From: a phage
Reading direction: 5' to 3' (one strand)
Sequence record: PZ379075.1
Length of the DNA stretch: 64,000 bases
The notes under the pieces were generated by a model. That model did no database searches, was not told where the DNA came from, and was given only the letters and a program-made list of their open reading frames with translations. Position 1 is the first letter of the stretch; each line of letters opens with the position of its first letter. Of the stretch, positions 20,766 to 22,874 are shown piece by piece. Both the position numbers and the translations under genes were made by a program.

Positions 20766-20844
20766 TCAATGGGTGCCTCTGATAAAGGGGCACAATTTAA
20801 AGGTTAATTAGATGAAAGGGTTTACCCTTCAGGTGGATTAGAAA

Positions 20845-22874
20845 ATTTGTGGCATCGTATTAGCTGGCGGTAATCTGTCAAGCACTGATTTAGACGTATT
20901 TAACCAACTCTTTTATGCTGGAGTATTCCGAGGACAACATTCCTCCGGTATCTTTGGTCAGCGTAAAAGTACTAAGGAAGTCTTCACTTATAAAGAAGCT
21001 CTTCCTTCTTTCGCATTCATCCTACAAGATGAGTACAAGAAGCACACCACTGGTGAAACAGCTTACACTGTAGCACCTTCATGGATTGTTGGTCACAGTC
21101 GTCATGCAACGAAAGGTGCAGTTAACGCCAAGAACGCCCATCCTTTCCAACATGGTAACATCACTCTGGTTCATAATGGAACCTTGATGGACCAAGACCT
21201 GTTACCTGACAGTAAAAACTTCGAGGTAGATAGTGAGAACATCTGCCACTCTATTAACACTATTGGTGCAGCAGAGACTATTCAAAAGCTGGATGGTGCT
21301 TTCACCTTAATCTGGCATGATGCTTCTGATAACCGCCTTCATATCATTCGTAACGAAGAGCGTCCTTTCCATCTCGCACGTTGTAACAGAGATTGGTTTG
21401 GCGCTTCTGAAGAAGATATGCTGATGTGGATTCTGAAGCGTTCGAAGTCTCACAAGAACCGTATTGATGAGCATTTTGAGTGTAAAGTTGGTACAGAGTA
21501 TATCTTTGACATGTCTAATAACAGCATGACACTGGTTGAAGAGGTCGCCCACGAGCTTCCGGTTTTTACGGTAGTCAATCGTTGGGGCAATTACTACTCG
21601 AACAATTACAGCCAAAGCAACTATCAAAGTTCCTCAAAAAGCAGTACAAGCAATCCTTACGACACGAAGCCGGGTGTGACAGCGGCAGACGTTCGTCGAA
21701 GAAACGCAGTGGTAAGTCAAAACAAAATCGCAAGCGATCGAAACATTGATATTCGCCGCGATATGACTGTGGAAATCACTCCGCATGAGTTTGTTCCTTA
21801 TGCAACTGCCGGTGCTGTTCCTTCTCGTGGTAAGATGATTGGTTATATCTACGATGAGAAATCTCAAGAGTATATCGAAGGTGATGTTCATAACGTAGAC
21901 ATTAAGGCTTATCAGGATGCCCTGAAAGACCCTAAAATTGTTTACCGTGGGACAGTATCCTGCATCTCCGAAGTCAATGCTATGGTCCGTTTAGTGATCA
22001 CAGCAGGTCGTTTTGTTGACCCATCTCTGGAGAAAAAGGAGCCTGAGTCAACTACTGCTGACTTCGATGATGATATCCCTTTTGATATGAATGATAGTTT
22101 CGTCAACAAGAATGGTGTTACTATCACTCGTAAATTCTGGGAAGCGCACTCTCATGGTGATTGTGGTGGTTGTGATAAGCACATTGATTGGAAGGATGCA
22201 CCTAAAGCAGTCTTCGCATATCAGTGCTATTGGCATCCTGAATGTCTGGAAGGTTTGACTAAACCTAAAGAGGAAGAAGAGGAGGAAACTCCTATTGGTG
22301 TTTGTGAAATCTGCGGTGAAGTTAAAACAGAGAATGAGTTCGATGATGAACTTAGTCGTCTTCGTGGTGAAGATATCTGTAAAGTCTGCGCTGTAGAAGT
22401 AAAGAAGAAAGTGTCTAATGCTACGATCAAAGATGGTTATGTCTGGATTAAAGCAACAGATACAACAAACGCCCGTCGTCCTGAATTCGCTTTACGTGTA
22501 ACTGAAGATATGATCGGTCGTATGACTGTATTACCTTCCTCAGCGAAACAGACAGGCATCACTCTGGAGGATGTTGTTGATGCTTATGTTGAGAAACGTA
22601 GCAACAGTATTTTTGCAATCTCAACTAAGCCAAAAAGGAGGAACCTGCTGAGAAAGCAGGTGTGTTTCCTGAATCACGAACAGCTCTCCGCAAAACTGTC
22701 GTCAGCTTCGACGGAAACCGAAGCACTGACTTCACCAAAGCAATGTGGTCAACCCTCGGATACTGCTCAGAGTGTTTTAAGCAGATTCCGTGGCGCGATG
22801 CTGAAAGTTGTACGCTTGGTTCTATGAATCAAGTTTATTGTAATTCTCCTAAATGTTCATTGAATAGAGGTTAA
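20845..22874 (+). CDS. class-II (Ntn) glutamine amidotransferase domain protein with Cys-rich zinc-ribbon C-terminal modules; frame break at A5 run near 22632
   Basis: N-terminus CGIV...GHSRHATKG...NAHPF...LVHNGTL matches GATase-II core; no ATG (ATT precedes catalytic Cys, SD GGTGGA 7 nt upstream); C-terminus continues in -1 frame after CCAAAAAGG. Confidence 0.6.

Follow-up and report, generated by a model that had tools for sequence, protein, structure and literature searches.

How does a phage gene begin when its product must carry a catalytic cysteine as residue 1 and no canonical start codon stands before that cysteine? The question is raised by a glutamine amidotransferase (GATase) gene of the N-terminal nucleophile (Ntn) type in sequence record PZ379075.1, a 64,000-nucleotide stretch of phiEco32-like coliphage type (Gordonclarkvirinae, Kuravirus) that was analysed at its full length and is referred to here as the window. 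Positions 20812-20850 read ATG (20812-14) AAA GGG TTT ACC CTT CAG GTG GAT TAG (20839-41) AAA ATT (20845-47) TGT (20848-50), followed by GGC ATC. A first-pass annotation had described this sequence, its in-frame amber codon, the ATT directly before Cys and the GGTGGA Shine-Dalgarno sequence 7 nt upstream, and all of these are present as described. It was also right that the gene lacks a canonical start: the GATase frame is open over 20842-22827, and in our check of the open reading frames (ORFs) of the window the first in-frame ATG, GTG or TTG is a TTG that lies 113 codons inside the conserved GATase domain, at 21184; none occurs between the TAG at 20839 and the conserved N-terminus. The best overall explanation, to which we assign a probability of roughly 0.8, is that the ATT is the true start codon, that removal of formylmethionine (fMet) exposes Cys1, and that the weak start is a selected trait of the family accompanied by compensating or regulatory features. 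When all stop-to-stop frames of at least 120 codons in the 64-kb window were checked for long start-less 5' extensions, no second real gene of this kind was found; the other such frames are only antisense frames overlapping the GATase gene or large minus-strand genes, and the GATase is therefore the sole example.

As judged from its sequence, the protein is a bona fide class II (Ntn) GATase. It scores above threshold with both Pfam GATase_6 (55.4 bits, cut-off 27) and GATase_7 (27.8 bits, cut-off 25), the domain occupying approximately the first 235 codons; the remainder of the protein is a long C-terminal extension rich in Cys. A search of the PDB with the single sequence returned no match, but a profile (alignment A1) built from 15 diverse phage homologues did match: its first column, an invariant Cys, aligns with residue 1 of the glutaminase domain of Escherichia coli GlmS (1xff, E = 1e-12) and also with residue 1 of PurF (1ecb). 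The expectation that the Ntn catalytic Cys is encoded at 20848 is thus borne out. The glutamine-site residues R28 and G29 (Arg-Gly), N110 and G111 (the Asn-Gly oxyanion hole) and D128 and S129 (Asp-Ser) are likewise invariant in these homologues. GlmS, PurF and AsnB of E. coli belong to the same fold family, share the requirement for Cys1 and obtain their mature N-terminus through removal of the initiator Met. Their genes start with ATG-TGY, however, whereas the phage gene starts with ATT-TGT; the phage protein carries a Cys-rich C-terminal extension of ~420 residues in place of their synthase domain and, unlike them, is encoded within a cluster of amidoligase, ATP-grasp and gamma-glutamyl cyclotransferase genes.

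Initiation at ATT with subsequent removal of Met, one of the options raised initially, is strongly supported by homologues that carry ATG or GTG at the same codon, by a Shine-Dalgarno spacing like that of ATG-started controls and by purifying selection on the N-terminus. Eight distant homologues from cultured phages (Privateer, A24, Vp_R1, SE131, 4_4572, APT65, RIO-1 and PaP3) have ATG-TGY (seven) or GTG-TGT (one) at the two homologous codons, and the nearest outgroups, at 63-65% protein identity, use ATG with an ordinary Shine-Dalgarno sequence. Codons 1-112, which lie wholly upstream of the TTG at 21184, show a ratio of nonsynonymous to synonymous substitution (dN/dS) of 0.06-0.075 between genera, at which distance synonymous sites are saturated (pS ~0.7); this argues that the N-terminal segment is translated. 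The SU10 orthologue gp85 has also been identified as a protein, 9 of its peptides having been found by mass spectrometry (PMC4281155). An ATT start would give a semi-tryptic N-terminal peptide, CGIVLAGGNLSSTDLDVFNQLFYAGVFR, beginning at Cys1.

The start codon itself is not new, since it is already in public annotation. The orthologous gene 83 of phiEco32 (phi32_83, "glutamine amidotransferase"; EU330206, ABY52884.1) has been annotated from the same ATT since 2008, and the RefSeq copy of EU330206 and the SU10 record (SU10_085) also start the coding sequence there (position 3246 of L001 corresponds to window 20845), although in phiEco32 this is an annotation only. A downstream ATG or TTG has been called in the records of Paul, KBNP1711, EP335, SU7, EK010, BUCT695 and KpnP_VR7901, which start the GATase 10-114 codons late and give protein models without the catalytic Cys1. 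In the searchable literature, whose coverage excludes the original phiEco32 papers, we found no experimental or comparative treatment of this start codon, and nothing on ATT/AUU starts in phage amidotransferases.

An unbiased, protein-based search of IMG/VR placed the locus in a wider context. This search retrieved 80 of 162 homologues, 75 of which carry Cys in position 1 of the alignment. The codon before this Cys is ATG in 49, ATT in 16, ATC in 4, TTG in 5 and TGC in one, the last with an ATG one codon further upstream; de-duplication at 80% identity leaves 44 ATG, 12 ATT, 3 ATC and 4 TTG cases, with ATT and ATC accounting for ~23%. Since this position holds only initiator-type codons, it is unlike an ordinary propeptide residue. 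The ATT/ATC lineages are dispersed among ATG lineages in a neighbour-joining protein tree, and two near-identical proteins (L116 and L117) have ATT and TTG, respectively. A GGAG-type Shine-Dalgarno sequence is found 6-8 nt before ATT or ATC, matching the ATG genes, and no in-frame canonical start occurs between the upstream stop and Cys in all four ATC cases and in 6 of the 11 ATT cases outside Gordonclarkvirinae. At the level of sequence, the census establishes the ATT/ATC start class as a recurrent, selected trait of this phage GATase family.

Genes of this class frequently possess a predicted hairpin next to the Shine-Dalgarno sequence, which we defined by three limits: a stem of 4 bp or more, a free energy no higher than -3 kcal/mol and an end no more than 4 nt away. 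Such a hairpin is present in 15/23 ATT/ATC genes among all non-redundant representatives, compared with 2/49 ATG and 0/8 TTG/GTG genes (Fisher p = 4e-8). When only protein-ascertained IMG/VR sequences are considered, the counts are 8/15 for ATT/ATC against 2/44 for ATG after de-duplication at 80% (p = 1e-4) and 6/11 against 1/33 at 60% (p = 4e-4). The hairpins occur in differing registers in the ungapped alignment of 16 leaders (A2), and for this reason each sequence was folded individually and compared with ATG controls and shuffles instead of being analysed for column-wise covariation. Among the 14 hairpin-positive lineages tested, whose stem sequences are unrelated, 0-4.2% of shuffles were as stable as the native sequence, and in most lineages the minimum-energy fold leaves the Shine-Dalgarno sequence and the AUU unpaired. 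The Shine-Dalgarno sequences of ATT/ATC genes are also stronger (-7.7 vs -6.3 kcal/mol, p = 0.0015). Klebsiella phage KpnP_VR7901 is a cultured example from outside the phiEco32 group. A metagenome scan for GGATTAGNAAATTTGYGGNNTNGT gave 13 matches, every one of them at the start of a GATase gene (13/13). Six of the matches come from diverged lineages, with GATase domains mostly 36-48% identical to one another and to that of the window (65% for L139/L140), and in these six a hairpin of unrelated sequence lies directly 5' of AGGAGGAUUAGAAA AUU UGY. Aeromonas phage BUCT695 alters the hairpin loop only (UGAA(A)GGG-UUNA-CCCUUCA) and the 60%-identical homologue L121 keeps the hairpin with one extra A-U pair.

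Other pairings in this region were considered. A Shine-Dalgarno-sequestering hairpin, GGUUUACC/GGUGGAUU (20819-26/20832-39, in a 115-nt fold), was rejected because two substitutions in BUCT695 break two of its pairs without compensation. The predicted long-range pairing of 20802-08 with 20860-66 falls in an invariant region, and its terminal pair is lost in KBNP1711.

The start lies in a block of 56 nt (20797-20852; Table 1) that is conserved to an exceptional degree. In comparisons of Kuravirus, Suseptimavirus and Nieuwekanaalvirus, the genes on either side share ~78% identity and their synonymous sites are saturated, yet the block shows no variation at all, and it is the fifth-longest exact three-genus block in the window. 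In BUCT695, a member of a different family, the GATase shows an overall identity of 35%, but the leader is 91% identical and retains the 9-codon ORF, the TAG AAA and the ATT TGT. The origin of the 9-codon ORF is suggested by L121, where the corresponding nucleotides form the tail of an intact XRE-type helix-turn-helix (HTH_3) ORF ending in TAG TAA ATT. Small, unannotated ORFs of this type lie between the ligase gene and the GATase gene in both L121 (1-219) and BUCT695 (L031, 2304-2552); that of BUCT695 is decayed, occupies the same frame and is preceded by a fragment resembling an HNH endonuclease (MDKVLKKITHQGDCWLWTGCINSDGYPKE). The comparison suggests that a mobile or regulatory gene once occupied the site and left the leader behind, and the 9-codon ORF is probably a relic of the 3' end of this HTH gene.

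In the mechanism that we favour, the 30S subunit would bind AGGUGGA 7 nt upstream of the start and initiator fMet-tRNA would decode AUU, after which deformylase and methionine aminopeptidase would strip the fMet and expose the Cys1 nucleophile, as in the Met-Cys enzymes GlmS, PurF and AsnB. Initiator tRNA inserts fMet at AUU codons, and the two processing enzymes remove it before small residues such as Cys; removal would be allowed in the phage protein because its second residue is small. The weak start would be accompanied by compensating or regulatory features, namely a stronger Shine-Dalgarno sequence and a hairpin of 5-7 bp ending 0-4 nt before it, which may stabilise or insulate 30S binding at this site, or stack on or insulate the Shine-Dalgarno/anti-Shine-Dalgarno helix, and so keep initiation on a poor codon possible. 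AUU starts are weak, controlled by initiation factor 3 (IF3) and sensitive to ppGpp, and IF3 rejects both AUU and AUC, which are also poor competitors when nutrients are limiting and under ppGpp (PMC3592434, PMC5499595). From this weakness we infer that the codon holds synthesis of the GATase subunit low or couples it to the translational or nutritional state of the cell.

The closest parallel is E. coli infC, which encodes IF3. This gene also starts with AUU, the stop codon of the preceding ORF lies exactly 3 nt upstream (UAA GGU AUU vs UAG AAA AUU in the phage) and the Shine-Dalgarno sequence is located inside that ORF, as in the phage gene; the AUU codon renders infC translation sensitive to IF3 (PMC3592434, PMC5499595). 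In infC, however, the AUU allows the encoded protein to regulate its own synthesis, whereas the phage product is a metabolic enzyme, for which dependence on IF3 would follow by analogy, and infC is preceded by thrS, whereas the phage upstream ORF has only 9 codons and is probably vestigial. Binns and Masters reportedly observed in 2002 that the AUU start of E. coli pcnB (poly(A) polymerase I) limits its expression, and the phage gene may be likened to pcnB, in which the weak start is said to keep a potentially harmful enzyme low. The latter is a single chromosomal gene, for which, to our knowledge, neither recurrence across a family nor a hairpin adjacent to the Shine-Dalgarno sequence has been described. 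At this locus alone, the finding would represent an unverified further case of an infC/pcnB-type start; for the family-wide frequency of ATT/ATC, the association with the hairpin and the nucleotide-perfect leader we found no published description.

Several observations weigh against an AUU start of this kind or against the interpretation placed upon it. All support for the N-terminus is indirect: the SU10 result is a detection of the protein as a whole, and because those proteomic data were searched with a truncated 63.8-kDa model, in which peptides of residues 1-113 could not be scored, they are silent on the N-terminus. Five of the ATT cases have an in-frame ATG, GTG or TTG 8-16 codons upstream, and a short N-terminal extension is possible for these. 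The hairpin statistics ignore shared ancestry, and 7 of the 23 ATT/ATC representatives came from searches that required the leader (L136-L140 from the metagenome pattern scan and BUCT695 from a blastn search with the leader). Finally, a simple weak start codon does not account for the absence of any change between three genera in all of the 47 nt that precede the ATT, as hairpin, Shine-Dalgarno sequence and spacer would be expected to tolerate change, and do so in other lineages.

The alternatives differ in how they account for the start. An artefact, in which a sequencing error hides an ATG, or a truncated protein lacking the Cys, begun at the TTG at 21184 or at the ATG annotated in SU7, Paul or KBNP1711, would agree with the downstream starts in many GenBank records and with the homopolymer indels found elsewhere in the window. 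The ATT-containing block is nevertheless identical in 97 independent genome records and carried by several metagenome contigs, which rules out a hidden ATG-Cys start, and the 112 codons before TTG 21184 evolve with a dN/dS of ~0.07 and hold the invariant C1, R28-G29 and N110-G111; we regard this explanation as already refuted by sequence conservation and give it almost no credence. Amber readthrough, which had also been put forward, would produce MKGFTLQVD-X-KI-Cys..., with a 12-residue propeptide that is then removed autocatalytically, in the manner of Bacillus subtilis PurF. The upstream ORF is indeed in frame, and its length resembles the 11-residue propeptide of PurF. PurF of B. subtilis is an Ntn amidotransferase with a continuous in-frame propeptide of 11 codons before Cys1, which accordingly does not follow the start codon directly; in the phage gene an in-frame TAG two codons before the ATT interrupts the coding sequence instead. 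In L121 the ATT follows two in-frame stops in a row (TAG TAA), homologues have ATG immediately before the Cys, and an in-frame canonical start further upstream is missing from most other ATT/ATC lineages. The hosts, moreover, are ordinary strains of E. coli and Shigella, and a suppressor tRNA is not a requirement. As far as sequences can decide, readthrough is effectively refuted, and it is exceedingly improbable. Translational coupling fares somewhat better. Here ribosomes would translate the 9-codon ORF (20812-20841), melt the hairpin, terminate at the UAG and reinitiate 3 nt further on at AUU without full proofreading by IF3, so that the upstream ORF would be required for GATase synthesis, a view that is compatible with direct initiation as well. 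The TAG does end 3 nt before the ATT, and the UAG-AAA-AUU geometry is that of the thrS-infC junction (UAA-GGU-AUU), at which reporter data assign about half of initiation to reinitiation (PMC3592434). An AAAGG lies 8 nt before the ATG of the upstream ORF, whose frame and stop are kept in BUCT695; the upstream HTH gene of L121 stops at TAG TAA right before the ATT, and a mini-ORF in L068 ends 4 nt before its ATT. Against this, the ORF is conserved in Gordonclarkvirinae and BUCT695 but is absent from most other ATT/ATC lineages, where upstream genes stop 14-45 nt from the start; in L121 it is part of a longer, real ORF and its ATG is replaced by CTG. Furthermore, the ATG lies within the hairpin stem, both differences between the window and BUCT695 that fall inside the ORF are non-synonymous, and the ORF looks like the relic of an HTH gene tail. 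Because the leader block is invariant, constraint on a peptide and constraint on the RNA are inseparable. Termination-reinitiation is therefore possible for this lineage, with its thrS-infC-like geometry, but the distribution of the ORF and the CTG of L121 speak against it as a general mechanism, and we consider it a tentative possibility with the odds clearly against it.

The conservation of the leader invites explanations of a different sort. The 56-nt block might be kept mainly for a reason other than GATase translation, for example as a promoter or operator, as an RNA bound by a phage protein (possibly by the Cys-rich C-terminal part of the GATase itself), as a leader sensing a metabolite or Gln codons, or as a flank co-converted by a homing endonuclease. 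Each of its nucleotides is invariant in 97 genomes despite saturated synonymous sites, which exceeds the need of a hairpin and a Shine-Dalgarno sequence, and only about five such blocks exist in the window. The presence of the same leader in the very distant BUCT695, beside a decayed HNH-like/HTH ORF, would fit horizontal spread, and a AAATGTAAA motif of relatives at the 5' edge of the block resembles the promoter consensus of phi32_gp36, tAATGTAtA. The leader itself, on the other hand, contains neither a match to this consensus nor a sigma-70-like promoter on the + strand, matches no Rfam family and is unique in the window, while its 3' two-thirds correspond exactly to the arrangement of hairpin, Shine-Dalgarno sequence and AUU that is seen again in unrelated sequence surroundings; we therefore think it rather unlikely that another function is the main cause, although a further role of the leader (as the 5' end of a transcript, as a site bound by a protein or as a functional upstream ORF) is possible. 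A bolder proposal is that hairpin, Shine-Dalgarno sequence, UUAGAAA spacer and AUU/AUC together form a dedicated and undescribed translation-control module of phage Ntn-amidotransferase genes, in which a structured element next to the Shine-Dalgarno helix allows or gates non-canonical initiation. The level of GATase synthesis would in that case depend on IF3, ppGpp, nitrogen status or a phage factor, the phiEco32 group would have elaborated the module into its nucleotide-perfect 56-nt leader, and the Gln codon of the relic 9-codon ORF, which overlaps the Shine-Dalgarno sequence, could act as a sensor. We put this forward as doubtful. Direct initiation at a weak AUU, selected within the family, remains the reading that we prefer.

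Table 1. Positions of the amidotransferase start region and adjoining elements in the window
Feature	Position	Strand	Remarks
Stem-loop GUGCCUCU/AGGGGCAC	20773..20793	+	Just after the amidoligase stop (20763-65); predicted fold
Invariant 56-nt leader / translation-initiation block	20797..20852	+	Identical in 97/97 Gordonclarkvirinae records
9-codon ORF MKGFTLQVD + TAG, in frame with GATase	20812..20841	+	Probable remnant of an upstream XRE-type HTH gene (its 3' end)
Hairpin UGAA(A)GGG-UUUA-CCCUUCA abutting Shine-Dalgarno	20813..20831	+	Predicted fold, -6.1 kcal/mol; 1.8% of shuffles as stable
Shine-Dalgarno AGGTGGA (GGTGGA 20832-37)	20831..20837	+	7 nt before ATT; duplex with 16S rRNA 3' end -7.0 kcal/mol; spacing as in ATG controls
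ATT, inferred initiation codon	20845..20847	+	Annotated start of phi32_83 and SU10_085; homologues have ATG, GTG, TTG, ATT or ATC there
TGT, catalytic N-terminal nucleophile Cys1 of class II GATase	20848..20850	+	Profile alignment to GlmS (1xff) and PurF (1ecb); invariant in alignment A1
GATase gene as read in the window, phi32_83 orthologue	20845..22827	+	Pfam GATase_6; 3' end frameshifted relative to relatives

Promoter-like sequences and RNA families were searched for around the leader. The middle/late promoter consensus of phi32_gp36 is tAATGTAtA (PMC8948821), and exact matches to it (TAATGTATA) occur in the window at 2861, 34616, 40913(-), 40985 and 50816(-), none of them near the GATase leader; the promoter reading of the leader was rejected. 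A motif TTTAAATGTAAA(T)(T)AG that resembles the gp36 consensus is present ~20-30 nt before the start in ATG-start relatives (L009, L010, L012, L022 and L023) and in BUCT695, and the homologous positions of the phiEco32 group read TTTAAAGGTTAATTAG. An antisense sigma-70-like match at 20881-20854 (-) (TTGACA, 16 nt, TACGAT; 10/12) does not exceed chance expectation, and SU7 and KBNP1711 have not kept its -35 hexamer. A scan of 20600-21000 with Rfam 15 at E values up to 10 gave chance-level hits only (13-17 bits, compared with gathering scores of 44-70), and no repeat of the leader was found elsewhere in the 64-kb window. The other longest blocks identical between the window, SU7 and KBNP1711 are 4310-4402 (93 nt), 61506-61573 (68 nt), 12753-12816 (64 nt), 4026-4084 (59 nt) and 10389-10438 (50 nt); their identity persists although synonymous divergence is saturated, which makes them candidates for regulatory or RNA elements. 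The stem-loop immediately downstream of the amidoligase gene shows compensatory differences between genera (GGGTGCC...GGGGCAC vs GGGCGC...GGGCGC) and is followed by only a weak U-tract (AAUUUAAA). On the predicted fold it may be a leaky terminator or an mRNA stabiliser.

Over 20600-21400 the window matches Shigella phage ShigP1 at 100% and phiEco32 at 97.8% identity. An Amidoligase_2 gene lies upstream of the GATase gene and an ATP-grasp gene downstream, with a COOH-NH2 ligase gene two genes upstream; in relatives the gene after ATP-grasp encodes a gamma-glutamyl cyclotransferase. The A-run at 22632-22636 is A5 in the window and A6 in phiEco32 and SU10, and as a result of this 1-nt deletion the last ~65 codons of the GATase are frameshifted and end at 22827 instead of at the equivalent of 22875. 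The frameshift replaces the Cys-rich tail (...YCSECFKQIPW...YCNSPKC). The deletion reflects either an error in sequencing the homopolymer or a genuine lesion; the records EcM-vB1, EcK-vB and EcP-vB show the same length. A second 1-nt deletion, in the C-run at ~23748-23752, splits the ATP-grasp gene into ORFs 23318-23773 and 23800-24510, the intact orthologue phi32_80 having 397 aa in phiEco32. These two homopolymer indels lie within 1.2 kb, in genes of the same pathway, and ShigP1 is 2 nt longer over 22600-23800, consistent with both deletions.

Since an Ntn enzyme must begin at Cys1, this family provides a rare internal ruler for true start codons, and gene callers limited to ATG, GTG and TTG truncate the enzyme in many public phage genomes and lose its catalytic Cys. 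A proportion of ~23% AUU/AUC starts in one enzyme family far exceeds the handful of AUU genes known in E. coli, and the association of ATT/ATC with a hairpin offers a natural test set for how bacteria and phages make non-canonical starts work, and for what is gained by them. The pattern suggests that dosage is tightly controlled, or control is conditional, for the glutamine-hydrolysing subunit of a pathway comprising amidoligase, ATP-grasp and gamma-glutamyl cyclotransferase, a still uncharacterised pathway that belongs to phiEco32-like and many marine phages.

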